This document shows, in pieces, positions 1 through 17,923 of a stretch of DNA of 20,756 bases. The notes beneath the pieces were generated by a model. It saw nothing but the letters and a program-made list of their open reading frames with translations. It was not told where the DNA came from and searched no databases. The DNA is from Candidatus Zhuqueibacterota bacterium (lineage in GTDB: Bacteria > Electryoneota > RPQS01). The stretch's first letter is position 1, and each line of letters starts with the position of its first letter. A program made the position numbers and the translations under genes. The stretch covers positions 1 through 20,756 of the forward strand of contig RPQS01000064.1 in NCBI GenBank assembly GCA_003818605.1, in the 5' to 3' direction.

Positions 1-2122
1 CCCACGGATAACAGCGATTATCCGTGTTCCCTCTGGCTGCCCGTTCCCACTCCGCTTCGGTGGGAAGTCGTTTTCCTTGCCAGGCAGCGTAGTCGCAGGC
101 ATCATACCACGAGACGTTCACCACGGGGTAATTCGCATAGGCTGAATCGGTGAAATAGTCAGGCATACCGGGGAATCCGGGATCGGGCGGATAACTGCGG
201 GCTGTGGAATCGCAAAAAGCTTTATACTGTGCGTTGGCAACCTCGAATCTGTCAATGAAGAACGCCGGCACATGGACAGTGTGGATGGGATGGGAATGTT
301 CAGGCCAGGTAGATCCCATATTATACGAACTTCCCGGAATCAGAACCATACCCGCCATGCTGTCGCTTGTTCCGGTCGTGAAGGACCAGAGAGGACCTTG
401 CGCCGTGTGGTCGTGATCATCATAAACGATAATCCGCCAATAGTAGGTTGTCCAGCTCGTCAACGTTCCCGGATCATAGGTGGCACCGGATTGTGCGGTA
501 CTCACCAGCGAAGGCGTTGAATCCGTCCCGAAATAGACATCATAGGTTAACGGATCCAGATCGGGATCAATGCCTGTCCACGAGAGTACCGAATCAACCA
601 ACTGGCCGATTGCGCCGTCAGCCGGGTATGGGAAAATCGGAACCGGGGGCTGATTCACAACGTTTGTCGCTGCGCAACGGAATCCGTACATGAAGCGTCG
701 CACCGTCGGAGAATAGTTCCAACGATAGCCGCACCGCAAAAATGTGTCCGGAGCGCTCCACGAGCCGCCCCGCAAAACGCGATTGGAGGCGCGTGGAGTG
801 TCAATCCATGCGCTTCCATTAGTAGGGGCGCCATCGTAAGAGGCATGCCAATCATCCTCGCACCATTCCATAACATTGCCTGCCATGTCGAAACAGCCCA
901 CCGGACTGACGCCATTAGGAAAATGACCAACCGGTGATGTATTTGTGTAGCCGTCGGAGGATTGGGAACCGTTTGCGTTTCCCGCAACCCAGGTATCCCC
1001 CCACGGCCATTGACGATTATCCGTGTTGCCTTTAGCCGCCCGTTCCCATTCCGCTTCCGTGGGCAAACGCGCGCCCCTCCATGCGGCATAGGCTTTCGCA
1101 TCATCCCAAGAAACCATGACTACCGGATAATTCGCATAGGTTGGATTGGTGACAACATAATCCGGTGCATCAAATGCCGGAACCAGCGGATAAGCTCGTC
1201 CTGTCGCATCGCAAAACACCTTATACTGTGCGTTCGTTACTTCATATATGTCTATATAAAACGCCGGAACGTGAACCGTATGGATAGGCAGCGAATAGGG
1301 AGGCTGGTAAGCCGCACCCATGCTGTAGGAACCCGCCTGAACGAACACCATTCCCGCGGGCAGAACATCATGATGGCGTAAATAAGTCACCAGCGCCGAA
1401 TCCTGCCCCTCCGCCAGCGTAAAGCTGAGAATCAGCGAATCATAATCCGCATACCGGAATTCGAGCTGGACCGAAACATCATCCAACGTGCGGGATTCTC
1501 CGGTTCGATGCGCGGCGCCCTCGCCGCCGATAGGACTTCTCCTGAACATCGAAACGTGCACTTCCTCGCCGCCGGAGGGTCCATTGCCCGGATCCAGCAG
1601 CACCATCTTTCGGGACTTGATCCCGTTGGGAGTATGCACCACAGTAAAATAGATTCCTCCGGCAATGCGCTGTCCCGTCGCGCTGCGTCCATCCCACCGG
1701 AAATCATAATATCCCGGCTGAAGTTTCCGATGGACAAGCTCCGTTACTTTCTGACCTAATATGTTGTAGATGGATACCCGCACGTCCTGCTGAATCGGAT
1801 TGGTCAGGCTGAAAGTTGTGCCGTTCGAGAAGGGATTCGGATAATTGGGAGTCAGATCAATGGTCTGCGGCAGCAGCGCGCGATTGTTTGAAGCACCGCT
1901 GGTATGAAACGTGTGAGCCCAATGGCCGCTGCCATCCGTCTGAACGGAATCCGTCTGTCCCGCGGAAATATCGGTAATGCGAACCCACGCCCCGGCCAAA
2001 ACGGTCGTATCGTGCACGGAATAGCCGAAGACCGTTCCGTGCAGCGAAACATCATCTAAAGTTTGCGCGGCGGCAAACTGCCCGATCAGCATTAAAACCA
2101 CAACGGTCAGAACGTGCTTCAT
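1..2122 (-). CDS. Secreted tandem FGE/SUMF1-domain protein, partial (C-terminus beyond window start). N-terminal signal peptide, CarboxypepD_reg-like region, internal FlgD-Ig/T9SS-CTD-like beta-sandwich, then two FGE-sulfatase domains separated by an Fn3-like linker.
   Basis: Translated by hand on the minus strand from the ATG at 2122..2120, giving MKHVLTVVVLMLIGQFAAAQTLDDVSLHGTV.... The ORF track lists no stop-bounded ORF in this frame across 1..2122, consistent with an open ORF running off the edge. Hand-translated motifs: LTPNYPNPFSNGTTFSL (rc of ~1790-1850), DAKAYAAWRGARLPTEAEWERAAKGNTDNRQWPWGD (rc of ~1000-1110) and YANYPVVNVSWYDACDYAAWQGKRLPTEAEWERAARGNTDNRCYPW (rc of 1-140). These match the domain order and spacing of the gene at 13153..15603 (EAEWERAA at residue ~355 and ~688 in both). 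Confidence 0.8.
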   Translation of the reverse strand, partial: MKHVLTVVVLMLIGQFAAAQTLDDVSLHGTVFGYSVHDTTVLAGAWVRITDISAGQTDSVQTDGSGHWAHTFHTSGASNNRALLPQTIDLTPNYPNPFSNGTTFSLTNPIQQDVRVSIYNILGQKVTELVHRKLQPGYYDFRWDGRSATGQRIAGGIYFTVVHTPNGIKSRKMVLLDPGNGPSGGEEVHVSMFRRSPIGGEGAAHRTGESRTLDDVSVQLEFRYADYDSLILSFTLAEGQDSALVTYLRHHDVLPAGMVFVQAGSYSMGAAYQPPYSLPIHTVHVPAFYIDIYEVTNAQYKVFCDATGRAYPLVPAFDAPDYVVTNPTYANYPVVMVSWDDAKAYAAWRGARLPTEAEWERAAKGNTDNRQWPWGDTWVAGNANGSQSSDGYTNTSPVGHFPNGVSPVGCFDMAGNVMEWCEDDWHASYDGAPTNGSAWIDTPRASNRVLRGGSWSAPDTFLRCGYRWNYSPTVRRFMYGFRCAATNVVNQPPVPIFPYPADGAIGQLVDSVLSWTGIDPDLDPLTYDVYFGTDSTPSLVSTAQSGATYDPGTLTSWTTYYWRIIVYDDHDHTAQGPLWSFTTGTSDSMAGMVLIPGSSYNMGSTWPEHSHPIHTVHVPAFFIDRFEVANAQYKAFCDSTARSYPPDPGFPGMPDYFTDSAYANYPVVNVSWYDACDYAAWQGKRLPTEAEWERAARGNTDNRCYPW

Positions 2123-5875: not shown

Positions 5876-7120
5876 ATGCCTCCGCAAATTGATATTAACT
5901 GGGCTTGTGTATATTACGAGTCCCTGACGACGTTTCTTGTTTTTGCGCTCGGCTTGCCCGCCCTGCTCTTTCAATTGGCCATGCCCGAGATTCGATATGT
6001 GCTTCATCGAAGGCCGTCCACTTGGCTGCTTTTCTGGATCCCAGCGCCTTGTCTTGCATTCTGCTGTATGGCCTTTATTTGGTGTTTTCATCCTTGCCCT
6101 GACGATAGTTTGTCCATGAGAAAATGCGAAGCTGCCTCATGGCTCATCACTGTAATCTTGATTCTCCTTGTCGTTTGGTCTCTCTTCCTCTCGTTCTGGG
6201 GACGACGTTTGCTGATAAAGATTCTGCGATTTCGAATCACGAGACTTTATGATTCCAATAACAGTATTGACATCGAAACGTTGGACGATCTCATCTATCT
6301 TGGTGAACAGGGCAAACGCGGAAACGAAAAAAAGAGTGTGCTTGATGAACTGAAGAAGCTTGCTGAATATGTTATTCAGAGCGATGGCTACGACGGTTCC
6401 GTTTTGGACAACGTAATAAAGGGTGTCGAAAAAATTGTTGCGAATGGCAAGGAACCGGGCTGTCGTGACGATTTCGAAAGAGCGACTGAAATTCTGATTA
6501 GCATCAAGAACCATTTGAATGTACAGAGTAAAAAAAATCAGTTCGCACTTCAGATTCCAATGAATCAGGGTGAAGGCCTTGTGCTTACTGACGCGCATGA
6601 CTATCGAATATTTCACAAAGTATTGTCATCAGTACAAAAAAAAACGAAGTTAAAAGTGGTCGAGCTCGCTGATAAAAATGACTATCGAATTGTCATAGAT
6701 GTCCTAAGAGATATCTGCCTGTCAGCAGTGAAGCATGAATTCACCTCTACGGGTAAAGACTGCGTTGAGGCTATTGTTCCGAAGAGTACGGCCTTATTTC
6801 AAATTGGCAAATTCGCCTTTCTCGAAGGTCATCATTTTGTTTCGCTCGTATCACTTAATAAATTGGATGATATAGCTCAACGGCAGCTAAAATTCAAGGC
6901 GAATGAAGATGTATTCAATCTCCTCGGCCTCATTGCCTATTTCTGGGCTGGCGGCGAGTCCTCGCGCAAACAGGCGGAAGATTATCTACGTGATGTGAAG
7001 GACATGTTTGATCCTTCTTTCATGGTTTGTACTGAAGCAGCCATCGAATATCATCGTACTTTTCCCCATTACGACACCGCCGACAAACTTCTCATCCTCC
7101 TCCGCGAGTATCCCTTTTAG
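5876..7120 (+). CDS. Membrane protein with four N-terminal TM helices and a large cytoplasmic alpha-helical domain, function unknown
   Basis: 414-aa ORF starting 4 nt after the receiver stop (operon arrangement). Hydrophobic stretches LTTFLVFALGLPALLF, WLLFWIPAPCLAFCCMAFIW and WLITVILILLVVWSLFLSFW. The remainder is charged and helical. No recognisable family. Confidence 0.7.
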   Translation: MPPQIDINWACVYYESLTTFLVFALGLPALLFQLAMPEIRYVLHRRPSTWLLFWIPAPCLAFCCMAFIWCFHPCPDDSLSMRKCEAASWLITVILILLVVWSLFLSFWGRRLLIKILRFRITRLYDSNNSIDIETLDDLIYLGEQGKRGNEKKSVLDELKKLAEYVIQSDGYDGSVLDNVIKGVEKIVANGKEPGCRDDFERATEILISIKNHLNVQSKKNQFALQIPMNQGEGLVLTDAHDYRIFHKVLSSVQKKTKLKVVELADKNDYRIVIDVLRDICLSAVKHEFTSTGKDCVEAIVPKSTALFQIGKFAFLEGHHFVSLVSLNKLDDIAQRQLKFKANEDVFNLLGLIAYFWAGGESSRKQAEDYLRDVKDMFDPSFMVCTEAAIEYHRTFPHYDTADKLLILLREYPF

Positions 7121-7149
7121 TATTTGTGTAGTATCACTGCCTGTCTGCC

Positions 7150-7195
7150 AAGCGAGATCTCGCCGCAGGCCGACCGTGTCCGATGCACAGACACG
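7150..7195. repeat. Rep-C module copy 2
   Basis: AAGCGAGATCTCGCCGCAGGCCGACCGTGTCCG plus CGTGTC...GACACG inverted repeat. Related to 2813..2856. Confidence 0.65.
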
Positions 7196-7206
7196 AAACA
7201 TCATTT

Positions 7207-7238
7207 GCAATAAAAAACGGGCGCACATTCGTGCGTCC
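7207..7238 (-). terminator. Rho-independent terminator for the TetR transcript
   Basis: On the minus strand: GGACGCAC-GAAT-GTGCGCCC hairpin (rc of 7218..7237) followed by TTTTTTATT (rc of 7208..7217). Confidence 0.6.
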
Positions 7239-7245
7239 GCTGTGA

Positions 7246-7391
7246 ATTCTCCCCCCGTTCATCGCAGATCTCGCTTCGCGGACCTGCCCCGCAACGCAAC
7301 CACCGCAAGGTGCACCGCGCCGGATTACTAGCCAACACCCTCCCGGGTGTTGGTCGCAACCCCCGCCGCAATTTTTGTCTTCTTTCAGCTT
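7246..7391. repeat. Rep-B copy 2. It lies between the TetR stop codon (7392..7394) and the TetR terminator. Its GCTTTC-rich 3' tail continues to ~7412 inside the TetR C-terminal codons.
   Basis: Identical to 2417..2566 except 2 substitutions. Here the hairpin is perfect: CCAACACC-CTCCCG-GGTGTTGG. Confidence 0.85.
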
Positions 7392-7991
7392 TCAGATTTC
7401 CGCTTTCCGCTTTTCTTCCACGATTCCCTTCATAATCCCCTTCACCACCCGCTTCACCGACAACGTTTTCGTGCACGTCGTCACATAAGGCACGGCTCCC
7501 TCCACTGCACAAAACAAGGCCGTGGCTTGCGCGGCCGTGTCATGTTTGACCAACTGTCCCTGCTTCACTCCGCACGACAGCATATATTCGTACCAGTTGA
7601 TCATGGCCGCGATCCGCACATTCACATGCGGCCACCACACTTTATTCTGCAGGGTGTGAACGACTCCCAGCAAATAAAATTCCTGCTCCCGCGGATGACT
7701 GGCCCAATACTTCAGATAATCTTCGATAAATTTCCGCAGCCCCGTCACCGCATCCAATCCGCCCGCCGAATTCATCATCACTTGCACGGGTTCGAATAGC
7801 CGTTCACGGACCGCCGCCAACACCGATTCCTTGTTGGAAAAGTAATGATAGAGCGTGGATCGGTCTATCTTCGCACGTTTTGCGATCTTTTCCATTGAAA
7901 CACCATCGTAGCCCCATCGTATAAATTCGCGAAAAGCGGCATTAATGATGTCTTTGATTCTTTTGTCTTTAGCCTGAATTGTGCCGGGCAT
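7392..7991 (-). CDS. TetR/AcrR-family transcriptional regulator
   Basis: 199 aa. N-terminal HTH AAFREFIRWGYDGVSMEKIAKRAKIDRSTLYHYFSNKESV is typical of TetR. The C-terminal helical ligand domain is present. Confidence 0.9.
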   Translation of the reverse strand: MPGTIQAKDKRIKDIINAAFREFIRWGYDGVSMEKIAKRAKIDRSTLYHYFSNKESVLAAVRERLFEPVQVMMNSAGGLDAVTGLRKFIEDYLKYWASHPREQEFYLLGVVHTLQNKVWWPHVNVRIAAMINWYEYMLSCGVKQGQLVKHDTAAQATALFCAVEGAVPYVTTCTKTLSVKRVVKGIMKGIVEEKRKAEI

Positions 7992-8023: not shown

Positions 8024-8130
8024 TAATATAACTTTCGTATGAACAACCATCAAGCCTGCAACTTTTCTTTCCGCTCTTTCGTTTGTATATTGTATTCACT
8101 TTCTATGTCTCATCGGCGGATTGCGGCTTT

Positions 8131-8177
8131 TCAATATTTCGGCTTCAGCTTTCCGCTTTCAGTTCTCAGCTTTCTGT
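8131..8177. repeat. GCTTTC-rich module related to the 3' tail of Rep-B, directly upstream of ssrA
   Basis: TTCGGCTTCAGCTTTCCGCTTTCAGTTCTCAGCTTTCTG compared with the Rep-B tail TCTTTCAGCTTTCAGATTTCCGCTTTCCGCTTTTC (7381..7415) and TTCTTTCCGCTTTCC (2550..2566). Confidence 0.5.
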
Positions 8178-8182
8178 ATTCC

Positions 8183-8535
8183 GGGGACGACATGGTTTCG
8201 ACGGGATTCAGGATGGCATTGGGTGCAGGTCGAGGCTGGAGTGCCCTCGTAAATCACATTCCAAAACAATAAGTGCGAACAACACTTATGCCCTTGCTGC
8301 CTAATTAATTAGGGAGCATGCCCTCCCCGGCTGGGGCGCAGCGGTCGGGGATGCGGCACCAACTCTCTGCGCTGGCGTACGGCAGGCCGCGGTCCGTGCG
8401 TGAGATTATGCGGCTGGCTTCCCCAAGCTCTGTCGTTGGTGCGACCGGGAAGTGAGAAACTAACCAGCGAAGACACCTGTGGTACCCGGTGTGGTCCGCT
8501 TTCCGGACGCGGGTTCGATTCCCGCCGTCTCCACT
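8183..8535 (+). ncRNA. ssrA: tmRNA (ssrA), tag peptide (A)ANNTYALAA
   Basis: 5' GGGGACGACATGGTTTCGACGGGATTCAGG... matches the tmRNA 5' consensus GGGGNNGANNNGGNUUCGACGGG. The tag reading frame GCG AAC AAC ACT TAT GCC CTT GCT GCC TAA runs 8275..8304, followed by TAATTAATTAG. The 3' tRNA-like end GGACGCGGGTTCGATTCCCGCCGTCTCCAC pairs GGGGACG with CGUCUCC (7 bp, one G:U). Discriminator A. CCA is not encoded. Confidence 0.9.
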
Positions 8536-8574: not shown

Positions 8575-8750
8575 TATACAAGCACATGACATATTCGTTT
8601 TCCTTGCAGTGTGCTGTCATTCATTGACTCTCGAAAGACATTTTGCTAACTTGAGATTAATGCACTTCGGCTGAGGGTTCACCCTTGTCATGCACCTTAA
8701 GATGAGCGAATTCTCTGTTGAAAAGCAGTAGGGTTCGCTCGGTTCATTTT

Positions 8751-9042
8751 ATCACCTGCCGCTATCAACATCATAGCGACGGCCGATAGAGCATCGAGAT
8801 GAGCACGCTGCCGCGAAGCGGCACAGCAAGCATAGCACCTTCGGTGCCATCGCCATTATAGCGACTGCCGAGTGGGCATCGGTGGCAGCGAAGCGGCGCG
8901 AGCCGAGTACTTATTCGCACCTTCGGTGCCATTACCATTATGGCGATAGCCAGTAGGGCAGCGAGATGAATACGCTGCCACTAAAGCGGTGCACACACAC
9001 GAGACAACGCTGCACCTTCGGTGCCATCACCATCATAGCGAG
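8751..9042. repeat. Rep-A tandem cluster: four head-to-tail units (8751-8834, 8835-8916, 8917-9011, 9012-9042 truncated)
   Basis: Each unit begins (A)TCACCTGCC / GCACCTTCGGTGCC, then CATC(A/G)CCAT(C/T)AT(A/G)GCGA(C/T)(A/T)GCC, then a variable part containing CGCGAAGCGGC-like hairpins. Period 82-95 bp. Degenerate Rep-A-like fragments also occur at 8668..8720. Confidence 0.85.
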
Positions 9043-9077
9043 AAATAACAGCATATCGCAAACGAGGTTTATTCGCG

Positions 9078-9740
9078 ATGACGACGGAAAACCTGTGGCC
9101 GAAAGAATGTGCAATGTGTGGCAAGGTTAGCGCACACACCAAACTTAGTTCAAGTACGGAGTTCGGCCCCCCTGATATGGACCTTCGTCCAGCGGAGATG
9201 TATCGTTCGACGATAAGCACTTGGATTCAACGATGTCCATACTGTGGGTTTTGTTCAGGCGACATTAGTGAGGCTGAGGAGGTTGACAAAACGATAGTCA
9301 ACAGCCCAAGCTACCAGTCACAGTTAAATGATCCGCGCTTTTCGGAGCTGAGCAATTCATTTCTCTGTCGAGCAATGATCGAGAACTCGTTGGGAAACTA
9401 TCAGGCGGCCGGGTGGGCTGCATTGCGTGCCGCGTGGGTGATGGACGACAGACAAAATGTTGCGTCTGCTGCGCAGTGCCGGCTTCGGGCAATTAAATTG
9501 TTCCTGCGTGATTTCGCAGCACGGCGGGACAGCTTGAAGGAACCGGCAAAATACTATGTCCTGCTCATAGATCTACATCGGCGCACCGAGCAGTTTGGAA
9601 TGGCGCAGACCCTGTTGCTTGAGGGCAGACTTCTGAACCTTCAGGATAATGAACAACAGATATTCGACATTCAGAACGAGCTTATTGCCAAGCGTGACGC
9701 CCGATGCTACACGACATTAGGAGAGTTGCGCAACGAATAG
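9078..9740 (+). CDS. Zinc-ribbon plus helical (TPR-like) protein, possibly DUF2225-like
   Basis: 220 aa. Two CxxC pairs (CAMCG ... CPYCGFC) at the N-terminus followed by an alpha-helical region. The family assignment is from memory of domain architecture only. Confidence 0.6.
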   Translation: MTTENLWPKECAMCGKVSAHTKLSSSTEFGPPDMDLRPAEMYRSTISTWIQRCPYCGFCSGDISEAEEVDKTIVNSPSYQSQLNDPRFSELSNSFLCRAMIENSLGNYQAAGWAALRAAWVMDDRQNVASAAQCRLRAIKLFLRDFAARRDSLKEPAKYYVLLIDLHRRTEQFGMAQTLLLEGRLLNLQDNEQQIFDIQNELIAKRDARCYTTLGELRNE

Positions 9741-9767
9741 TCTGTCCCAGAACACTGAATCTATGGT

Positions 9768-9835
9768 GTTGCACCGAAAGCCTGCCGCCATTACCAACAT
9801 CCAAAGCGCAAGTGGTGCCATTTATTCTGACGACG
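9768..9835. repeat. Degenerate Rep-A copy
   Basis: GCACCGAAAGCCTGCCGCCATTACCAACATCC...GGTGCCATTTATTC. Recognisable CTGCCGCCAT(C/T)ACCA core but diverged. Confidence 0.5.
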
Positions 9836-9882
9836 TACAGCGGACGGATATAACAAGTGGTGTCTCTACAGGATAAGACTCC

Positions 9883-10719
9883 ATGAGAACAACCGCCTTT
9901 TTTCCCTTTTATTGGCTGCTGGTATGTATGGCTTTCGCACAGCCGCCTGATCTACAAATGCACCAATCCACAGAAGCGACTCGACAACGCGGGGGATTTT
10001 CGCTCGGACTTCAACACGAACAATCAACGCCGCTCGACGAAAATGTTAATCTTCGCCATTCGAACATTGATATTGTTACTTTCTGCATGGATACGCTGTT
10101 CGGCTACGAGACAATCTGTAGCTGGTGGGACGTTTTCAATCCATTCAGTCCAGAGGACAACTTCACCGTCGATGTTGCCCGCATTCACGCGACTCCGGAG
10201 CATCTTACTCAGTATTATTGGAACATCTTTGTCCCCGAAAGAAGTCCAGCCGATCCGGATCCCGGAAATCCCAACTTCAGCAATGCTCTCTACGACGCAC
10301 TAACCATTCAGGGAGATCCCTACGGAAGCGCAAGGATTTTTCCTGTTACCGTGGACGCTGGCCTGGGAACCGAGGACTTCCTCTTCCTCGCCCGTGCCTA
10401 CGACGATTCGATTCATTTTGTTTCTGTTGACCCGCACTTGATTCCAGTCACACATGGGCTACACGTGACCGTCACGTGTTACCCAAATCCCTCCAATGCG
10501 AAGACAATCATCTCGCTCGCACTGCCGCACGCGAGCAAAGTCAGCCTTGCCGTGTACGACATCATGGGCCACGAGGTGTGTGCGCTGTACGAGGGAATGC
10601 TTGAGGCTGGAGAGCAACGGTATGCATTTGACGGTTCGCTGCTGCCATCAGGGATTTACTTTGCGCGCTTGGATGCAGGCACCTTCTCGCAGACGAAGAA
10701 GCTCATGCTGCTGAAGTAA
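9883..10719 (+). CDS. Secreted protein with C-terminal T9SS/Por sorting domain (FlgD-Ig-like)
   Basis: Signal peptide MRTTAFFPFYWLLVCMAFAQ. The C-terminal ~80 aa are CYPNPSNAKTIISLALPHASKVSLAVYDIMGHEVCALYEGMLEAGEQRYAFDGSLLPSGIYFARLDAGTFSQTKKLMLLK, which matches the Por_Secre_tail / FlgD_ig pattern. Confidence 0.8.
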   Translation: MRTTAFFPFYWLLVCMAFAQPPDLQMHQSTEATRQRGGFSLGLQHEQSTPLDENVNLRHSNIDIVTFCMDTLFGYETICSWWDVFNPFSPEDNFTVDVARIHATPEHLTQYYWNIFVPERSPADPDPGNPNFSNALYDALTIQGDPYGSARIFPVTVDAGLGTEDFLFLARAYDDSIHFVSVDPHLIPVTHGLHVTVTCYPNPSNAKTIISLALPHASKVSLAVYDIMGHEVCALYEGMLEAGEQRYAFDGSLLPSGIYFARLDAGTFSQTKKLMLLK

Positions 10720-10730
10720 ATCATTCCTGA

Positions 10731-10806
10731 CGCCTGCCGCCATCACCATCATAGCGATAGCCGATGGGGTATCGAGATGCTGTAGAGCAGCAGGCGGAGC
10801 ACGCGC
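10731..10806. repeat. Rep-A copy (full length, best-preserved)
   Basis: CGCCTGCCGCCATCACCATCATAGCGATAGCCGATGGGGTATCGAGATGCTGTAGAGCAGCAGGCGGAGCACGCG. Flanking inverted repeat CGCCTGC/GCAGGCG encloses the core. Confidence 0.85.
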
Positions 10807-10848
10807 CCTCTTGTTACTGTCTAAAAGCGAAGGAGCTTGCTCGGAGAC

Positions 10849-12333
10849 ATGAATCCCCGATCATTTAAGTGGTTCTTTGGTATTTTGGCATTTCTATTTG
10901 CTCTATACCTGACGCTTTTGATCCCAGATCCAGCAGTGCTGGTTTCGCGCGCGCAAGATAAGGAACCCTTTGCATGGAATCGCGACGAGTATTGGTCATC
11001 GCTGGAATCAAGGTTCAAGGAAGCACGGGCTGAAGGCTGCGCGGGTTTATCTTTAGCGATTAATCAAAGACTCTCAAAGATTGATAGTCTCAATGTGCGA
11101 TTGCGGAACGGTTCACTGCCACCTACGATGCCGGTGTACGGTGAAGTCGAGAGCAACTTCTTTGAGTCGGGAGTGCTCCTGGCTGTTTGTCCGTCCAGGG
11201 CCAGCGACTATATGAGATCCTTCGGGGAGCTCAGACGTGCCTTGAAACAGCAGTCTGTGAAGTGGGACATGAACTCTCAAGCCGGGCGAGACTGCATCTA
11301 CAGGCTTCTCTATGGCGGTCGCATTGCTATCGAAGAGGTGATTCTGCAGTCGGCTAAAGGGGTTGTTTCACAGCCCGTCGTAGAAGCGAACGAACCCTCG
11401 GAAACACCATCCGCAACCATCTTGGGCATGGAGATTCACAGTGGTGACATCCTGGTATCACGAGGCGGTGCTCCGACGTCAGCCTTGATCGCGCGGGGCA
11501 ATGACTACCCCGGCAACTTCTCTCATGTCGCTCTGATCTATATTGACGAGAACACCGGTTTGGTCTCGATCATTGAATCTCATATCGAGAAGGGGGTAGC
11601 AATTGCCGGCATAGAGGACTACCTCAAGGATATAAAACTGCGGGTGATGGTGCTTCGCCTTCGATCGGACCACCCCGCATTGCAAGCCGATCCGATGCTT
11701 CCACACTACGCGGCCAAGTACATGTTTGGGCAGGCAGGCGCTGAGCATATCCCTTATGATTTTGCGATGAACACGTCGAACAAATCCAAAATGTTCTGTT
11801 CCGAGGTCGTATCCGGCGCTTACAGTCACTGCGGTGTCAAGCTTTGGGCCGGACTCTCCAACATCTCCAGCATGGGAGCCCGGTCGTGGTTGTCCGCCTT
11901 TGGCGTGCGAAACTTCACCACCGAGGAACCGTCGGATCTTGAATACGACCCTCAACTAAGCGTGATCGTCGAATGGCGCGACTACGAGACGCTCTACAAG
12001 GACCATTTGGACAATGCGGTGGTAGACATCATGCTCGAGAGTGCGGACAACGGGGCAGCGCTTGGTTATGACTGGTACATGCTGCCAGTGGCAAGGGTGA
12101 TCAAAATCTATTGTGCGATTATCAATAAGTTCGGTGCTATCGGACCGATCCCGGAAGGAATGACGGCCACATCAGCCTTGAAGAACAAGTGGTTCTCCCG
12201 GCACCATAGCGAAACAGTAAAGAAACTAAGTGTTCTGGCACAGCACTTCCGGCAGAGCAACGGCTATTCTCCGCCGTATTGGGATCTGATCAAGCTTGCT
12301 CGACAAGCCTATACCTCGTCTGTCACAAGATGA
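10849..12333 (+). CDS. Permuted papain-fold peptidase (C92 / YiiX-YebB-like) with N-terminal TM anchor
   Basis: GDILVSRGGAPTSALIARGNDYPGNFSHVALIY (His-first motif) followed later by KMFCSEVVSGAY (catalytic Cys). N-terminal FKWFFGILAFLFALYLTLLI. The ATG at 10849 is preferred over the listed TTG at 10837 because AAGGAG lies at 10829..10834. Confidence 0.75.
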   Translation: MNPRSFKWFFGILAFLFALYLTLLIPDPAVLVSRAQDKEPFAWNRDEYWSSLESRFKEARAEGCAGLSLAINQRLSKIDSLNVRLRNGSLPPTMPVYGEVESNFFESGVLLAVCPSRASDYMRSFGELRRALKQQSVKWDMNSQAGRDCIYRLLYGGRIAIEEVILQSAKGVVSQPVVEANEPSETPSATILGMEIHSGDILVSRGGAPTSALIARGNDYPGNFSHVALIYIDENTGLVSIIESHIEKGVAIAGIEDYLKDIKLRVMVLRLRSDHPALQADPMLPHYAAKYMFGQAGAEHIPYDFAMNTSNKSKMFCSEVVSGAYSHCGVKLWAGLSNISSMGARSWLSAFGVRNFTTEEPSDLEYDPQLSVIVEWRDYETLYKDHLDNAVVDIMLESADNGAALGYDWYMLPVARVIKIYCAIINKFGAIGPIPEGMTATSALKNKWFSRHHSETVKKLSVLAQHFRQSNGYSPPYWDLIKLARQAYTSSVTR

Positions 12334-12372
12334 CGGCACAACCGAATAGCAACGATAACAACAAACGACATG

Positions 12373-12415
12373 AGCTGCATCGGCCATCACCATCATAGCG
12401 ACGATAGCAGCACCA
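12373..12415. repeat. Rep-A copy (core only)
   Basis: GCTGCATCGGCCATCACCATCATAGCGACGATAGCAGC. Confidence 0.7.
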
Positions 12416-12454
12416 CACCGAATCCTAAAACCAGGCAGCACGAAAGAGCATTTC

Positions 12455-12820
12455 ATGGGATTTCTAAAGCGCCTTTTCACCGGTTCTACAAAGCCAGGCA
12501 AGCCGATTGCCGTAACGGACGAATCTTTCGAACAGGAAGTGCTGAATTCAGATTTGCCTGCGGTGGTTGACTTCTGGTCACCGACGTGTGCGCCGTGTCA
12601 GGTGATGGGAGGACTCTTGAATGAGCTTGGTCCAGAGTTTACAGATCGTCTTCGGATTTTCAAGTTGAACGTGGAACAAAGTCCGGACACCGCTGAACAG
12701 TACCGGATTCGGGGTGTTCCCACACTCGTATTCCTGCGCAAGGGGCGAGAAGTTGACCGTGTTGTAGGTCTGATGCCACTTCATCCGCTGCGCGCCAAGC
12801 TTGAGAAACTTGCATCATAG
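12455..12820 (+). CDS. Thioredoxin-family protein with CAPC active site
   Basis: VVDFWSPTCAPCQ ... GVPTLVFLRKGREVDRVVG is the classic thioredoxin fold. Active site WSPTCAPC instead of WCGPC. About 18-aa N-terminal extension. Confidence 0.9.
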   Translation: MGFLKRLFTGSTKPGKPIAVTDESFEQEVLNSDLPAVVDFWSPTCAPCQVMGGLLNELGPEFTDRLRIFKLNVEQSPDTAEQYRIRGVPTLVFLRKGREVDRVVGLMPLHPLRAKLEKLAS

Positions 12821-12827
12821 ACTCGAT

Positions 12828-12990
12828 GGCCTTCCGGTGCGCATCGGCCAGCATCATCATAGCGAGAGCCGATAGGGCCTTAGATGCTTCGGAGTAGTGC
12901 GAAGCGCGGTAACCAGACGTGCCGGCGCATACCGCCATCACCATTATAGCAGGGATGACAGTGGAGGTCGCAGCGTCGGCATGACCGATA
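12828..12990. repeat. Two adjacent Rep-A copies (12828-12912 and 12921-12990)
   Basis: GGCCTTCCGGTGCGCATCGGCCAGCATCATCATAGCGAGAGCCGATAGGGCCTTAGATGCTTCGGAGTAGTGCGAAGCGCGG, then CCGCCATCACCATTATAGCAGGGATGACAG.... Confidence 0.75.
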
Positions 12991-13152
12991 CGTTATTTAC
13001 CCATGAACAGAGCACTCTAAGCAGTCAGGAATCGGCATCCCACAATGGCTGAAAAAAACACACTGCGTGCGTCCCGCCTTCCATCATAGATATCGCAAGA
13101 GCCGGTGTGTAAAATGCTCAATCGGTTAACCACATACACTCTTGGAGAGAAA

Positions 13153-15603
13153 ATGCGAGTCTTACAGTGGTCCTTGGTTCTTGTTTTTACCTTTGCTGTT
13201 GTTGGCATAGCGCAGCCCTTGGATGATGTTCAATTATCGGGCATCGTCCACGGCTACTATGGGCCAGACACGACGGTTTTAAGCAATGCGACCGTTATGA
13301 TTGAGAACCTCGGAACGGGTCAACACGACTCGGTTATCACCAATGATTTAGGATTTTGGTCGTGGACCGGAGTGTCGAATGCCGTGGGCGAACCTCATTC
13401 GCCCGTGCCGGGAAATCTCGCGCTGGCTCCCAGCTATCCGAATCCATTCTCGGAGACGACGACGATTCGCATTCTGAACAATTCCCAGCAGCGTGTACGA
13501 CTTGAGGTGTATAACATTCTTGGGCAGCGGGTAGCCGAACTGGTGGATGACAATCTGCGTCCCGGCGCGTTCGATCTCACATGGAACGGCGTAAGCCGCA
13601 ACGGCACACCTCTCGCGCAAGGCATGTACTTTTTATGCTTGAACGCTGGCGGTCATGCGGTGACCCAGAAGATGGTGGTTCTTGGAACCGGTTCAGGACT
13701 TGCGAAAATGTCGCTTCGCGGGTCGAATCCGGGAAGCGGAGGATTGTTCGAACCCTTGCGCGGCTCCGGATTAAAAGGACATGCGAGCACGCTGGATGAT
13801 TTCTTGCTTCGCCTGGAGTTCCGGCACACGGACTATGACTCGGTGATCATGAACCTTACTTTGGCGGATGGACAGGATACGATGCTTGTGACCTACTTGC
13901 GCCGTCACCAAACTCCCGAGATGGTTCTGGTACCGGAGGGACCGTATTCGATGGGAGCGACTTATCGCACCACATCACAGCCTGTTCATACGGTGAATGT
14001 TCCGGCATTTTATCTTGATGTGTACGAAGTCACCAACTCCCAGTACAAAGCCTTCTGTGATTCCACGGGGCGCACCTATCCTCCCGATCCCCAATTCACC
14101 GGCATGCCCAACTACTTCACTGATCCGCTCTACGCGAATTACCCCGTGGTGAGCGTCTCATGGTATGATGCTCGCGCCTACGCTACGTGGAAAGGGAAAC
14201 GCTTGCCCACCGAAGCCGAATGGGAACGTGCGGCGAAGGGGAACGTGGACAACCGGCCGTGGCCGTGGGGAGACACATGGGTCGCGGCGAATGCCAACAT
14301 CTACCAGAATGCTGCTGACAGCTTCGAGTTTACGTCACCCGTCGGTCATTACGTTAATGGGATCAGTCCGACCGGTTGTTACAACATGGCGGGCAATGTG
14401 TCGGAGTGGTGTGAGGATGACTGGCATGATGATTATAACGGCGCCCCCACTGACGGCAGCGCATGGATAGACAATCCGCGCGGCCCCTACCGTATTATAC
14501 GGGGCGGTTCATGGCAGGGCTACGATTATAGCGCACGATGCGCCGAACGCGACTTGAACGAACCATCCATGCAACACAGCGCTATCGGTTTCCGTTGCGC
14601 CAGAAGCATCACCATCAATCAGCCGCCCTTAACTCCGTCTTCACCAATTCCAACGGATAGTGCAATCAATCAGTCAGTGACCGTCACTCTCGCGTGGACC
14701 TGCAATGATCCGGACAATGATCCAACTACGTACGATGTCTATTTTGGCACGGCATCTACGCCGCCACTGGTCAATTCCAGTCAGACAGCAGCAACTTACG
14801 ATCCGGACACGTTGGCCAACAACACAACCTACTATTGGCGAATCGTGGCGCATGACAATCACGATCACTCGACATCGGGACCTGTTTGGTCGTTTACAAC
14901 GCTGATGGGAGGCATGGTTTTAGTTCCGGCGGGGCCGTATACAATGGGTTCTTCCGCATTGGGAAGCACTGCAAGACCTGAACACACCGTCGATATTCCC
15001 GCGTTTTATATGGACATCTACGAAGTGACGAATGCCCAATATAGAGCCTTCTGTGACTCGACAAGCCGGGCGTATCCGTCCGATCCGGGCTTTTACACCA
15101 ACTACTTCACAAGCCCAACCTATGCGAGTTATCCGGTAGTCATGGTAGATTGGAATGACGCCAGCGCTTATGCGACATGGGCGGGGAAGCGGCTGCCGAC
15201 GGAAGCGGAATGGGAACGTGCGGCGAAGGGGAATACGGATAACCGCTTGTATCCATGGGGAGATGCGTGGGTTGCAGCCAATGCCAACGTCATCAATAAT
15301 CCCGCCGATGGATACACCTACACATCACCTGTAGGCAATTACCCGAATGGGATCAGTCCGGCGGGCTGCTATGACATGGCTGGAAATGTGTTCGAGTGGT
15401 GCGAGGATGACTGGCATTCGAACTATACCGGTGCGCCGACCGACGGCAACGCCTGGATAAACAATCCGCGCGGCGCCTATCGTATTCTACGGGGCGGCTC
15501 ATGGAACGTCAACCAGTTGAACGCACCATGTGCTTTTCGTTTCTTCGACAGTCCGACGTCCCGCTACAACCTTTACGGATTCCGTTGCGCCAGAACGCCA
15601 TAG
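13153..15603 (+). CDS. Secreted tandem FGE/SUMF1-domain protein (paralog of 1..2122). Signal peptide, CarboxypepD_reg-like region, internal FlgD-Ig/T9SS-CTD-like domain, FGE domain 1, Fn3-like linker, FGE domain 2.
   Basis: The probable start is the ATG at 13153 (MRVLQWSLVLVFTFAVVGIA, GGAGAG 4 nt upstream); the listed GTG at 13105 adds 16 non-signal residues. PSYPNPFSETTTIRI...GMYFLCLNAGGHAVTQKMVVL at residues ~95-185. Two copies of HTV.VPAFY.D.YEVTN.QY.AFCD ... RLPTEAEWERAAKGN ... GNV.EWCEDDWH ... RGGSW, which are the FGE-sulfatase signatures. Linker WTCNDPDNDPTTYDVYFGT...TYYWRIVAHDNHDH is Fn3-like. Confidence 0.9.
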   Translation: MRVLQWSLVLVFTFAVVGIAQPLDDVQLSGIVHGYYGPDTTVLSNATVMIENLGTGQHDSVITNDLGFWSWTGVSNAVGEPHSPVPGNLALAPSYPNPFSETTTIRILNNSQQRVRLEVYNILGQRVAELVDDNLRPGAFDLTWNGVSRNGTPLAQGMYFLCLNAGGHAVTQKMVVLGTGSGLAKMSLRGSNPGSGGLFEPLRGSGLKGHASTLDDFLLRLEFRHTDYDSVIMNLTLADGQDTMLVTYLRRHQTPEMVLVPEGPYSMGATYRTTSQPVHTVNVPAFYLDVYEVTNSQYKAFCDSTGRTYPPDPQFTGMPNYFTDPLYANYPVVSVSWYDARAYATWKGKRLPTEAEWERAAKGNVDNRPWPWGDTWVAANANIYQNAADSFEFTSPVGHYVNGISPTGCYNMAGNVSEWCEDDWHDDYNGAPTDGSAWIDNPRGPYRIIRGGSWQGYDYSARCAERDLNEPSMQHSAIGFRCARSITINQPPLTPSSPIPTDSAINQSVTVTLAWTCNDPDNDPTTYDVYFGTASTPPLVNSSQTAATYDPDTLANNTTYYWRIVAHDNHDHSTSGPVWSFTTLMGGMVLVPAGPYTMGSSALGSTARPEHTVDIPAFYMDIYEVTNAQYRAFCDSTSRAYPSDPGFYTNYFTSPTYASYPVVMVDWNDASAYATWAGKRLPTEAEWERAAKGNTDNRLYPWGDAWVAANANVINNPADGYTYTSPVGNYPNGISPAGCYDMAGNVFEWCEDDWHSNYTGAPTDGNAWINNPRGAYRILRGGSWNVNQLNAPCAFRFFDSPTSRYNLYGFRCARTP

Positions 15604-15638
15604 TTGGCTCTTGCTCCCTTGGTTCTTGACTCTTCGGT

Positions 15639-15670
15639 TGTGCGTAAATCTTTCGTACACACTTTTTTGG
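15639..15670 (+). terminator. Possible weak rho-independent terminator after the FGE gene
   Basis: TGTGCG-TAAATCTTT-CGTACA hairpin (one G:T) followed by CACTTTTTTGG. Confidence 0.35.
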
Positions 15671-15725
15671 TTATCATACGCAAGTATGACAGACATGCGA
15701 AGCATCAGCCACTGCATCTGAAGTT

Positions 15726-15900
15726 GCCACTCACCTTCATCACCATCATAGCGACAGCCGATGGTGCATCGATGCGAAGCTCTGCGATATTCGAAGCCAT
15801 TCGCCTACGGATCGGCCATCATGAATATGATTGCAACCATGGTACCGCACGCGGGGATGGTGTTACGGCACAGCATCATGTGCATCAGCGACCATTGACC
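15726..15900. repeat. Rep-A copy (15726-15786) plus a degenerate copy (~15869-15900)
   Basis: GCCACTCACCTTCATCACCATCATAGCGACAGCCGATGGTGCATCGATGCGAAGCTCTGCG, and further on CATCATGTGCATCAGCGACCATTGACC. Confidence 0.75.
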
Positions 15901-16052
15901 CTCCTTGGACGTTGAACTTCCATCCGCCGGTTATGCCACACGGGAAAGTGCGCCATTTGGCTAACGACATACAGTCTGTGGCAAAGGCGGAAGTTCAAGT
16001 TTCCGCTGCCCCCAACAAACCAAACCGGAAAAACCTTAGAAAGGTAACAGAG

Positions 16053-16913
16053 ATGATCTACGTAGCGATTACGCTTCTTGCATTGCTTATCGTTTCATTT
16101 TTCGTAAAATGGGAATCCAATGCGGTTCCCCCTTGGGTGAAAGGTGCTATTATTGCTCTCGCAGCAATCTTCACGGTTTTCAGTATGGTGCGTACCGTTC
16201 CCAACGGCAGTTGCGGTGTTGTTGACCTGTTCGGCGTGATCCAGCCAACCGCACTGGATCCCGGAATCAATTTCGTGAACCCGTTTGCTGATGTAATCCA
16301 TAAACCGACACGCACCCAAGAGATCAAAGAGACCATGATCACACCATCCAAAGAAGGTCTGTCGTGTGAACTTGAAGTTTCTTGCTTCTTCCATGTCAAA
16401 AAAGAAGCTTGGCCTGTGATGATGCAAACAGTTCAGAACGGCGACCCATTAGTTCTCCTGGAACCCAATTTTCGTTCAGTAACACGTGATATTACGACTA
16501 CATCGGAGGCAAAAGCCCTATACACTGCTGACCGGACCATTCTCGCGGGTAAGTTGAAAACCGATTTGGCGACGGTCGTTGGTCCTCGTGGTATCACGAT
16601 TGAAGAAACTCCGATGCGCAGTTTGAAGTTGCCTGCGAGTGTATCTGAGGCAATTAATGCGAAGGCAACAGCGGAACAGGAAGCTCAGAAAATGGAGTTT
16701 GTCTTGCAGAAAGAGAGGCAAGAGGCTGAGAGAAAACGTATCGAAGCCCAAGGCATCAAAGACTTCCAGAAGATAATATCTGAAAGTATCAGCGATAAAT
16801 TACTTGCTTGGAAGGGGATTGAGGCGACAATGGATATTGCCAAGTCTGAAAACGCAAAAACTGTAATTATTGGATCGGGCAAGAATGGATTACCCATCAT
16901 TCTCGGTCAGTAA
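16053..16913 (+). CDS. SPFH / band-7 (prohibitin, HflK/C-like) membrane protein
   Basis: MIYVAITLLALLIVSFFVKW (TM) then VRTVPNGSCGVVDLFGVIQPTALDPGINFVNPFADVIHKPTRTQEI, which is the SPFH-domain signature. C-terminal coiled-coil-like EQEAQKMEFVLQKERQEAERKRIEAQ. The start at 16053 is preferred over the listed 15831 because the upstream 220 nt overlap the Rep-A copies and AAAGGT lies 8 nt before 16053. Confidence 0.8.
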   Translation: MIYVAITLLALLIVSFFVKWESNAVPPWVKGAIIALAAIFTVFSMVRTVPNGSCGVVDLFGVIQPTALDPGINFVNPFADVIHKPTRTQEIKETMITPSKEGLSCELEVSCFFHVKKEAWPVMMQTVQNGDPLVLLEPNFRSVTRDITTTSEAKALYTADRTILAGKLKTDLATVVGPRGITIEETPMRSLKLPASVSEAINAKATAEQEAQKMEFVLQKERQEAERKRIEAQGIKDFQKIISESISDKLLAWKGIEATMDIAKSENAKTVIIGSGKNGLPIILGQ

Positions 16914-17059
16914 TTGAGTCTGAAAACGATGGATCTTTCTCATCGGGACCATGGTCGTCGCACCGGGATCTGTGGCTACGGTCAAGGGATCCGTTGGCTA
17001 TGACGTGGAGGACGGACACGTTCTGAGAGCCTGTGTGTTCTTGGTCTTGTCCCCGAAAC

Positions 17060-17285
17060 CGGTACCACCGCGAAGCGGCACACACCACGCCTGAAATCAT
17101 AAGGCACAATTGCTGCCGCCATCACCATTGTAGCGACATCCATAAGGTATGAGATGCTGCGAAGCGGCATACCGATCTAACGCACCCTCGGTGCCATCAC
17201 CATTATAGTGAAGATGGCAGCAGTGTGCGGCAAACAAAGTATCAAGTGCCTTCGCGTGCCTCCCCCTTCATCACCATAACGAGCT
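17060..17285. repeat. Cluster of three or four Rep-A copies or fragments (17060-17080 tail fragment, 17112-17170, 17182-17232, 17246-17285 degenerate)
   Basis: GCTGCCGCCATCACCATTGTAGCGACATCCATAAGGTATGAGATGCTGCGAAGCGGCAT, then GCACCCTCGGTGCCATCACCATTATAGTGAAGATGGCAGC, then GTGCCTTCGCGTGCCTCCCCCTTCATCACCATAACGAGC. Confidence 0.8.
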
Positions 17286-17365
17286 TGTTGTGCGTATTGT
17301 TCAGACGATTTACTTACCGTATACTACTGACTGCATTCTGTTCACTTCGCCTCAGAGAGGATCCG

Positions 17366-17704
17366 ATGAAAACAACGACTCAGAACCAGGGAGACGTACT
17401 GGTAATCTACCTTCACGGGAAAATCATGGGTGAGGAGCCCGGCACAACGGAATTTCATGATACAATCACGAGCGCGATAGTCGAAGGGAAACGGAAGGTC
17501 GTCGTTGACTTCGCAAATGTCGACTGGCTGAATAGCTCTGGCTTGGGAATGCTGGTGAAATCTTATGGGATTCTCAAAGAGGTTGATGGCCAGATGCGGT
17601 TGTCTGGAATGAATGAGCCTGTAACACAAGTAATGGTAAATACACGACTCGATCTCGTATTCGAAATCCACCAGTCCGTGCAATCCGCAATTGCAAGTTT
17701 CTAA
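17366..17704 (+). CDS. STAS-domain anti-sigma-factor antagonist (SpoIIAA/RsbV-like)
   Basis: MKTTTQNQGDVLVIYLHGKIMGEE...VVVDFANVDWLNSSGLGMLV...MRLSGMNEPVTQVMVNTRLDLVFEI. Start at ATG 17366 with GAGAGG upstream. The listed 17225 start lies inside the repeats. Confidence 0.8.
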   Translation: MKTTTQNQGDVLVIYLHGKIMGEEPGTTEFHDTITSAIVEGKRKVVVDFANVDWLNSSGLGMLVKSYGILKEVDGQMRLSGMNEPVTQVMVNTRLDLVFEIHQSVQSAIASF

Positions 17705-17709
17705 GGGGC

Positions 17710-17860
17710 GCAGTGGCCGCGTAGCGGCGCAAGCTGTTAGACATTCGCACCTTCGGTGCCATCACCATCATAGCGATAGGCGATGGGATATCGAGATCGC
17801 GAAGCAGCGTGATTCGGCGGTCGGCATTCGCCGCCCACCTTCATCACCATCATGCAAGAG
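17710..17860. repeat. Rep-A copies (17747-17809 full, 17836-17860 partial) plus a GCCGC-GTA-GCGGC hairpin at 17717-17729
   Basis: GCACCTTCGGTGCCATCACCATCATAGCGATAGGCGATGGGATATCGAGATCGCGAAGCAGCG, then CCACCTTCATCACCATCATGCAAGAG. Confidence 0.8.
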
Positions 17861-17923
17861 AATGAAAAAAGTGCTGATCACATTTCGGACTGGGCATAAC
17901 TATTCTTCTATTCACCGACACCG

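Follow-up and report, generated by a model that had tools for sequence, protein, structure and literature searches.

Predicted exported proteins with two non-catalytic FGE-fold domains in a KSB1 bacterium: a C-terminal segment with the codon signature of diversity-generating retroelements

What could a secreted protein with two domains of the formylglycine-generating enzyme (FGE) family be doing in a region that encodes no sulfatase? The question is raised by contig RPQS01000064.1 (GenBank assembly GCA_003818605.1) of a Candidatus Zhuqueibacterota bacterium, the whole of which, 20,756 nt in length, we call the window, and which carries two such genes, here named A and B. We find that the complete FGE domains of both have lost their catalytic cysteines and that the 3′ end of gene A bears the mutational signature of a diversity-generating retroelement (DGR). 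The explanation that we favour, with a confidence a little above even, is that A and B are exported, non-catalytic binding proteins with a C-type-lectin fold, the C-terminal domain of which is, or was until recently, diversified in trans by a DGR. The genes and domains in question are the following.

13153..15603, + strand: gene A, encoding an 816-aa, predicted exported protein with two FGE-fold domains (the NCBI entry RPH94675.1 starts earlier)
13153..13212, + strand: predicted Sec signal peptide (residues 1-20, ...VVGIA|Q, by eye; AlphaFold2 helix at 2-19)
13225..13905, + strand: three small beta-sandwich modules, adhesin-stalk-like (residues about 25-251; AlphaFold2, with Foldseek matches to SiiE and other tandem Ig adhesins)
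13435..13680, + strand: internal Por_Secre_tail/FlgD-Ig-like module (residues 95-176; Pfam 36.4 bits, TIGR04183 40 bits, Foldseek 8glk_D and 7eha)
13912..14604, + strand: FGE-sulfatase domain 1 of gene A (A1; residues 254-484), without both catalytic Cys
14638..14901, + strand: Fn3/Ig-like beta-sandwich linker (residues 496-583; sub-threshold Ig_Rha78A_N; AlphaFold2 block with pLDDT, the predicted local distance difference test, of about 77-97)
14908..15594, + strand: FGE-sulfatase domain 2 of gene A (A2; residues 586-814), without both catalytic Cys
1..2122, - strand: gene B, a partial paralog (707 aa) of the same architecture, outside the array that holds gene A; the position of its variable region lies beyond the window edge
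671..1357, - strand: FGE-sulfatase domain 1 of gene B (B1; residues 256-484), without catalytic Cys as read against the A1 and A2 alignments
1..355, - strand: FGE-sulfatase domain 2 of gene B (B2), N-terminal half only

The open reading frame (ORF) of gene A opens with a GTG at 13105 and ends at 15603; its ATG at 13153 is preceded by a Shine-Dalgarno-like GGAGAG, and public annotations use starts that yield 829, 816 or 809 aa. The protein of gene B is identical to an NCBI partial protein of candidate division KSB1. An earlier note on this DNA, made from its letters alone, had described the two as diverged paralogs of one architecture, and so they proved: they are 54% identical over 710 aa (E = 0), with two PF03781 (FGE-sulfatase) domains each, recovered by the Pfam search at 3.6e-124 and 6.6e-92. 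The peptides that it had quoted as examples of divergence are present. The motif EAEWERAAKGN, which it had placed near residues 355 and 688 of both, lies at 354-364 and 684-694 in A and at 356-366 in B, while the second copy in B (about 689-699) reads EAEWERAARGN.

Its domain labels fared unevenly. FGE and the label for the FlgD-Ig or type IX secretion system (T9SS) C-terminal domain (CTD) stand: at least one Por_Secre_tail or FlgD_ig model of Pfam per protein scores above its cut-off at around residues 95-176, and TIGR04183 (NCBIfam), with its cut-off at 23 bits, scores 40 and 34.8. CarboxypepD_reg (19 bits against 32.3, in protein A only) and the Fn3-like module (matched as Ig_Rha78A_N with 18 and 17 bits against 27.4) stay below threshold, and it is the predicted structure that supports these two labels. 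The full-length AlphaFold2 model of A (pLDDT 86) consists of an N-terminal helix, three beta-sandwiches, an FGE domain, the beta-sandwich at 496-583 and a second FGE domain. Foldseek matched this model with FGE structures (2q17, 6muj, 1y1e) at an E-value of about 6e-19 and a template modelling (TM) score of about 0.7 on target, as well as with PvdO and TvpA (2y3c; TM 0.64 on target), and its N-terminal part with adhesin-like tandem Ig modules, a T9SS substrate CTD (8glk_D) and FlgD. Because the latter module is internal (95-176 of 816 residues), “T9SS-CTD” is a fold label here and not a C-terminal sorting signal; the extreme C-terminus, where T9SS cargo carries Por_Secre_tail, is an FGE domain in the gene A protein. 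In a domain identity matrix, used in place of a phylogeny, all copies share 55-79% identity with no clean orthology by position, gene B being the most diverged; the pairs A1-C1, A2-C2 and C1-C2 (76% for the last) are equally close, and the matrix favours no particular order of duplication. The two-FGE-domain architecture is rare.

We checked the catalytic residues with HMMER alignments of the A domains to human FGE (C336, C341). The human active-site stretch GGSYMCHRSYCYRYRCAAR (GGSYmCHRSYCYRYRCAAR) aligns to GGSW---QGYDYSARCAER in A1 and to GGSWNVNQ---LNAPCAFR in A2; three residues are deleted, and the counterparts of C336 and C341 are a gap, D, V or Q. Domain B1 reads GGSWSAPDTFLRCGYR, with no Cys between GGSW and RC. 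The copper-binding catalytic pair is absent in all three complete domains (A1, A2 and B1), B2 being truncated. The Cys residues of RCA and GFRC, which we take to form structural disulfides in human FGE, are kept in the gene A protein. Since the copper-binding pair is gone, the FGE domains cannot, as judged by their residues, make formylglycine, and the loss of both catalytic cysteines indicates binding instead of catalysis. The earlier note had itself said that such a loss would point to a binding role. One of the functions that it had suggested, Cys/thiol modification, has lost its basis thereby, whereas the idea of a non-canonical extracytoplasmic role is supported. Both proteins start with a signal peptide, predicted by eye (MRVLQWSLVLVFTFAVVGIA|Q and MKHVLTVVVLMLIGQFAAA|Q). 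Its remark that no sulfatase is nearby also held good: a sulfatase domain was not found in the scanned ORFs of the window.

A DGR copies a template repeat into RNA and then, making errors at adenines, into cDNA, which takes the place of the variable region in a target gene. FGE-sulfatase is the commonest scaffold of DGR variable proteins, and such C-termini form the largest class of DGR targets (PMC5758913); beyond what the earlier note had seen, the last 24 variable codons of gene A bear the signature of this process. Three stretches are concerned.

15505..15576, + strand: DGR-type variable-region-like segment, 24 codons that lie between RGGSW and GFRCARTP plus stop codon
14515..14586, + strand: equivalent of this segment in domain 1, where the NNY bias is only weak and has decayed and where codons for Q, E and M occur
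15604..15645, + strand: non-coding stretch after the gene A stop, a putative target-site element (like an initiation of mutagenic homing, IMH, site or hairpin)

The gene A segment, NVNQLNAPCAFRFFDSPTSRYNLY, is 24 residues long and is followed by GFRCARTP and the stop; in the 76% identical ortholog (locus L001), it reads EYGDTYTRCANRNSSSPTNRDAGV. Between the two, 13 out of 13 positions that would be Asn in a template differ, against none of the seven scaffold positions (9, 10, 12, 16-18 and 20). Residues 785-808 constitute the lowest-identity 24-aa window in the 814-aa alignment of A with this ortholog (29%, against a mean of 76%). Moreover, the spacing (24 aa), position and register of the segment equal those of the variable repeats in loci L020, L037, L055, L059 and L080 and of the template ORFs described below.

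The codons carry the strongest trace. At the 13 Asn-equivalent positions in seven C-terminal domains of the clade (91 codons), 86 codons are NNY, compared to a background of 57% in gene A (p = 6e-16), and 89 of the 91 residues fall within the set of fifteen that can be reached from AAC by adenine-only changes. A stricter test, limited to amino acids with a free third base, run with amino-acid-specific backgrounds and with locus L004 added as an eighth domain, found 39 out of 42 codons ending in C or T where 24.2 were expected, a count reached in none of 200,000 simulations. When five lineages are compared in pairs, positions 1-2 of the Asn-equivalent codons differ in 69% of the comparisons and position 3 in 17%, while the interleaved scaffold codons differ in 14% and 36%, respectively. 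This inverted codon-position pattern is not predicted by point mutation plus selection but is predicted by adenine-specific rewriting of AAY codons. The comparison of codons thus demonstrates the signature, which does not in itself imply that a DGR is currently active. It follows that a DGR-type target can be recognised by codon statistics alone when the retroelement is off the contig, which is useful for fragmentary metagenome contigs.

The segment of the L004 relative is almost unmutated (SNNSSNSRCASRIDNNPANRNNFI). Used as a proxy template, this Asn-rich segment put 30-40% of mismatches at A, compared with an A content of 23%, a mild excess that is not decisive. Downstream of the stop, some 35 nt (..TTGYTCCCTTGGTTYWTGRC..) are conserved in four lineages, the proteins of which are only about 70-76% identical (elsewhere at L001 7641-7680, L003 1575-1612 and L005 3199-3232). 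As a homing signal, a hairpin in this stretch did not convince: the predicted fold is weak (-4.7 kcal/mol), and with one out of 11 predicted pairs changed on both sides, covariation is unconvincing.

Do the relatives of gene A have such retroelements? We screened repeats in 79 genome loci encoding gene A relatives for mismatches at the adenines of one copy, by self-BLAST with an adenine-bias filter run over the window and 86 fetched loci. In five of the 79 loci, this yielded true template/variable pairs of 120-137 nt, in which 84-100% of the mismatches are at template adenines and the variable copy corresponds to the last ~125 nt of an FGE domain; one of the templates translates as RGGSWNNNATNCRIANRNNNTPDNRNNNNGFR. 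With a template-like peptide as the protein query, we retrieved 139 short ORFs (36-80 aa) that are translated DGR template repeats. We inspected 121 of them (the 120 listed matches plus one cluster member; P0123-P0243), and in most, GGSW is separated from GFR by 24 residues that follow the pattern NNNxxNxRxANRNNNNPxNRNNNI. Such a protein search is a fast route to DGR templates. As an annotation artefact, many of these template ORFs are publicly named “SUMF1/EgtB/PvdO family nonheme iron enzyme” or “formylglycine-generating enzyme”. Among the matches listed, three are from KSB1; none ends in CARTP, and none is cognate to gene A at the DNA level.

DGRs of the same type do occur in other KSB1 genomes. 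Those at L087 (6168-10213) and L089 (4581-6936) are complete, while L088 (RQOH01000073.1, 5477-8927) has a target, a bAvd gene and a template repeat, with no reverse transcriptase called adjacent. The proteins targeted are of a cytoplasmic, conflict-system-like kind (NACHT-FGE, CHAT-TPR-FGE) or consist of a bare FGE domain, and the L089 template matches its own target only. Literature searches for DGRs or integrons in KSB1 gave nothing relevant. In the DGR literature at large, targets more than 100 kb away from the retroelement and a triple-FGE target are known (PMC5758913), and incomplete DGR loci diversified in trans have been observed (PMC10907252).

On these grounds, we propose that A and B would be Sec-exported, non-catalytic binding proteins, in which an N-terminal stalk of beta-sandwich modules would bear two lectin-fold domains of the FGE superfamily with an Fn3-like module between them. 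Adenine-specific mutagenesis of AAY (Asn) codons would have rewritten the tip with which the C-terminal domain binds its ligand, both in gene A and in its close relatives. As gene A has no DGR beside it, the element would either operate in trans, from another place in the genome, or have been lost recently. A cognate template repeat and reverse transcriptase may thus be expected in this genome; the proteins would be located, and would meet their presumed ligand, outside the cytoplasm, and gene B would probably be diversified likewise. Were a trans-acting DGR at work, these would be exported variable proteins with two lectin domains in a poorly known phylum, and candidates for variable adhesion, prey recognition or substrate recognition.

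Several observations weigh against diversification in trans by a current or recent DGR, and most of them suit a rival account, in which the clade descends from DGR-diversified ancestors, the retroelement is gone, the proteins are fixed exported lectin-fold binders and the segment pattern is a fossil. The window contains neither a template repeat nor a reverse transcriptase (no RVT_1 in the scanned ORFs), and neither was found within 10 kb of any close homolog (template screen, L001-L007); in none of the searches made did a cognate part appear. A guessed template pattern, CCGNCGAAYCGNAAYAAYAAYNNNGGATTYCGTTGY, matched among metagenome contigs only the unrelated high-GC DGR of L082, and two relaxed template patterns had zero matches in viral contigs. 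The three KSB1 templates are 58-78% identical in nucleotides to gene A over the aligned stretches with mismatches that are not adenine-specific, and we rejected them as cognate on both counts; with a KSB1 reverse transcriptase as the query, none was identified from the assembly of the window. The signature is weak in the internal domains (A1, B1 and their counterparts), where NNY codons number 60 out of 78, or 19 out of 27 at free sites, and where Q, E and M codons occur; as far as their codons tell, these domains look like old copies in which diversification has ended. The gene A segment itself shows oddities of a non-adenine type, namely CAG and TTG codons and a conserved scaffold Arg changed to Pro (scaffold changes CGG to CCA and ACG to TTG), which would agree with a degree of drift after the most recent homing. 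At four-fold sites, A and its ortholog have diverged by no more than 23% in transversions, so that third-position retention alone does not date the mutagenesis. Finally, gene A is identical in JGI contig L002 (sample 3300027743) and the NCBI record, which possibly represent one assembly, the homolog P0011 is identical in two samples, so that no present-day variation is observed, and P0011 and P0013 share HCGCI at segment positions 20-24. We nevertheless consider a relic possible but rather unlikely: near-saturation of positions 1-2 of the Asn-equivalent codons between lineages, along with the low rate at position 3 relative to the scaffold, means that rewriting went on after the lineages had split. 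The variable segment is, in addition, the fastest-evolving part of the protein, and KSB1 genomes hold both active-looking DGRs and loci without reverse transcriptase.

The remaining rivals dispense with the retroelement. Ordinary diversifying selection on a ligand-binding loop might be invoked, as the loops between RGGSW and GFRC line the binding groove of the FGE fold and are variable superfamily-wide, and as DGR parts are not in view; it is improbable, since it leaves unexplained that 39 of the 42 freely degenerate codons have C or T as their last base, that changes hit both first codon positions and spare the third, that the variable positions match the template Asn codons of real DGRs one for one and that K, E, Q, M and W are nearly absent (2 out of 91). 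We think it very improbable that A and B are working enzymes of the FGE superfamily, be it formylglycine generators for distant sulfatases or oxidases of the PvdO-like or EgtB/OvoA type. The strong PF03781 matches, the best PDB matches (FGE, CalU17 and PvdO) and the NCBI name, which announces a nonheme iron enzyme, would suit an enzyme, but the catalytic cysteines are gone, Pfam finds no DinB-type iron domain, sulfatases are missing from the window and TvpA, a close structural relative, is reported to lack FGE activity (PMC5758913). Furthermore, the protein reaches none of the NCBIfam equivalog cut-offs (GldK, PvdO, EgtB, SenA and GldJ), with scores far below them (score/cut-off: GldK 245/350, PvdO 208/500, EgtB 175/360). 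GldK being the best NCBIfam match, PorK structures being matched as well and T9SS cargo being encoded by neighbours, one might also think of a structural part of the type IX secretion or gliding machinery akin to PorK/GldK or GldJ; this strikes us as scarcely credible, given that the GldK score misses the cut-off and its best stretch covers profile positions 209-407 of 408, the C-terminal half only, that the signal peptide has no lipobox Cys, that gldL, gldM and gldN are not among the neighbours in the window, that the gene sits in a variable cassette array with neighbours that differ between relatives and that its two-domain architecture is rare.

Diversification in trans by a DGR thus remains the reading that we prefer, and A and B join a known class, the FGE-type DGR variable proteins, in which they are unusual in their orphan status, in being exported with two domains and in being carried by a cassette array. 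The members compared are the FGE-sulfatase-type variable proteins of the CLec1 class, Treponema denticola TvpA (2Y3C) and category “b” of Wu et al. 2018 (PMC5758913). Gene A has in common with them a C-terminal C-type-lectin domain of FGE fold without catalytic cysteines, a variable segment that falls within the last ~40 codons and agrees in its 24-residue spacing and its Asn register, and the signature of NNY, AAC-accessible codons; multi-FGE and remote targets have already been described in the class. It departs from them in that its neighbourhood offers no template repeat, reverse transcriptase or Avd and that the searches brought up no cognate template, in being exported with two domains, only the last of which has a clear signature, in its N-terminal stalk with an internal T9SS-CTD-like module, and in being a cassette in a repeat-bounded array beside ssrA. 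By sequence, the gene A protein is nearer to true FGE (4e-31) than to TvpA (1e-13). With aerobic FGE (human SUMF1, 1Y1E; Streptomyces/Thermomonospora enzymes, 2Q17, 6MUJ and 5NXL), it shares the fold at about 33% identity and the conserved RLPTEAEWE and GFRCA motifs; unlike these, it lacks both Cu(I)-binding Cys, has a 3-residue deletion at that place and has two domains per protein, and a sulfatase partner is not in view for A or B. PorK/GldK and GldJ, lipoproteins of T9SS and gliding in Bacteroidota, likewise have a non-catalytic FGE fold outside the cytoplasm and belong to the FCB group, whereas A and B score below the cut-off, have no lipoprotein signal and no gldKLMN context, differ in architecture and carry a hypervariable tip. 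The labels “formylglycine-generating enzyme”, “nonheme iron enzyme” and “T9SS C-terminal target domain protein” are unsupported by the sequence and are corrected here.

The earlier note had also placed one of the two paralogs in a repeat-punctuated array, and this is where gene A lies, between two cores of a 17-mer, CATCACCATCATAGCGA, that occurs in 12 same-strand copies between 8763 and 17776 (0.07 expected).

12936..12952, + strand: left-hand repeat core bounding the gene A cassette
15738..15754, + strand: right-hand repeat core bounding the gene A cassette
8746-17870: repeat cores at 8763, 8848, 8930, 9025, 10741, 12385, 12849, 12936, 15738, 17120, 17195 and 17760

The array starts directly 3′ of ssrA (tmRNA, 8183-8534; tag ANNTYALAA) and runs in one direction through genes that are unrelated to each other: an unknown, T9SS cargo, a C92 peptidase, thioredoxin, gene A, Band_7, STAS and PRiA4/SEC-C. 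After each of them comes an element on the same strand, in which the core CATCACCATCATAGCGA is set in an imperfect hairpin, and nearly all intergenic gaps of the array hold this core. The hairpins that span the core have z-scores from -0.2 to -3.7; mini-hairpins, GCACC-TTCG-GGTGC and xGCGAAGCx, flank the element. In a search of the array repeat against Rfam, the tmRNA was the only match, the element itself being absent. At the start of the array (8746-9062), four successive repeat units without genes, spaced by 85, 82 and 95 nt, look like empty cassettes.

The same element punctuates the arrays of two relatives, L001 and L004, which have a different gene content. In BLASTN of the window against L001, homology extends from 12934 to 15737, that is, from the core at 12936 to the next one at 15738, while the neighbouring genes differ; homology between arrays breaks at the cores. 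The Band_7/SPFH gene (15931-16919) is 88% identical in DNA to L004 7094-8083, compared to about 73% for the FGE genes, and the position of the L004 copy relative to the FGE gene differs, which implies that the cassette order has been shuffled. The L004 array comes after a 3′ piece of ssrA (6399-6441) that lies behind an IS630-like transposase gene (HTH_32 plus DDE_3), with two tRNA-Ser genes upstream; as the array comes after ssrA or a fragment of it in both, its position is syntenic. Going by these alignments, gene A behaves as a mobile cassette. Acquisition or duplication through the array, as the earlier note had it, is therefore borne out for gene A, where homology ends at the flanking cores, but nothing supports it for gene B, which is encoded on the opposite strand, beyond the array, and has no cores around it. 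L004 (CAYORN010000004.1) is labelled “uncultured Alphaproteobacteria”, a doubtful label since it has the KSB1-type array repeat, the 88% identical Band_7 cassette and T9SS cargo genes in common with the window.

The array resembles integron cassettes and sedentary chromosomal integrons in its unidirectional, unrelated genes, each with a repeated imperfect-hairpin boundary, and in a content and order that differ between relatives, with homology breaking at the repeat. Unlike integrons, it has no attI in view, and an integron integrase was found neither in the window nor upstream of the array in L004, where the search brought up only the IS630-like transposase; it starts at ssrA, and its core is a 17-mer at the 5′ edge of the cassette, where, judged by eye, no consistent GTTRRRY/RYYYAAC boxes are present. 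The cassette array may be more original than the FGE proteins. That the two combine into a KSB1 hypervariable locus by ssrA, in which cassettes with a hitherto undescribed 17-mer hairpin are shuffled and a lectin tip is hypermutated in trans by a remote DGR, is a speculation that we regard as doubtful; if it were true, two independent diversity-generating mechanisms would act on one surface-protein gene.

Some further features were seen in passing. The unrelated DGR of L082 (592-2000) lies in a small high-GC metagenome contig and has a reverse transcriptase of 357 aa with a YCDD motif; its template repeat, on the opposite strand, encodes RGGSFNNNATNLLASNRNNNNPTNRNNNIGFRC, and it is unrelated to the organism of the window. 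Within the window, repeats resembling miniature inverted-repeat transposable elements (MITEs; 2415-2850 and 7128-7393) bracket a low-GC block (44% against 53%), which comprises a PAS histidine kinase gene (3154-5340) and two ORFs without Pfam match and may be an inserted mobile segment. The bracketing repeats are a direct repeat of 147 nt (97%), found at 2415-2561 and 7247-7393, three copies of a 55-nt unit and the inverted arms AGATCTCGCTTCGCGGACCTGCC and GGCCTGTCCGCGAAGCGAGATCT. Upstream of gene B, the 7-nt sequence TTCATCC is tandemly repeated in 4.3 copies (2567-2596). Short repeats like TTTCAGCTTTCCGCTTT occur at 7383-7413, after the TetR gene, and at 8129-8187, just upstream of ssrA.

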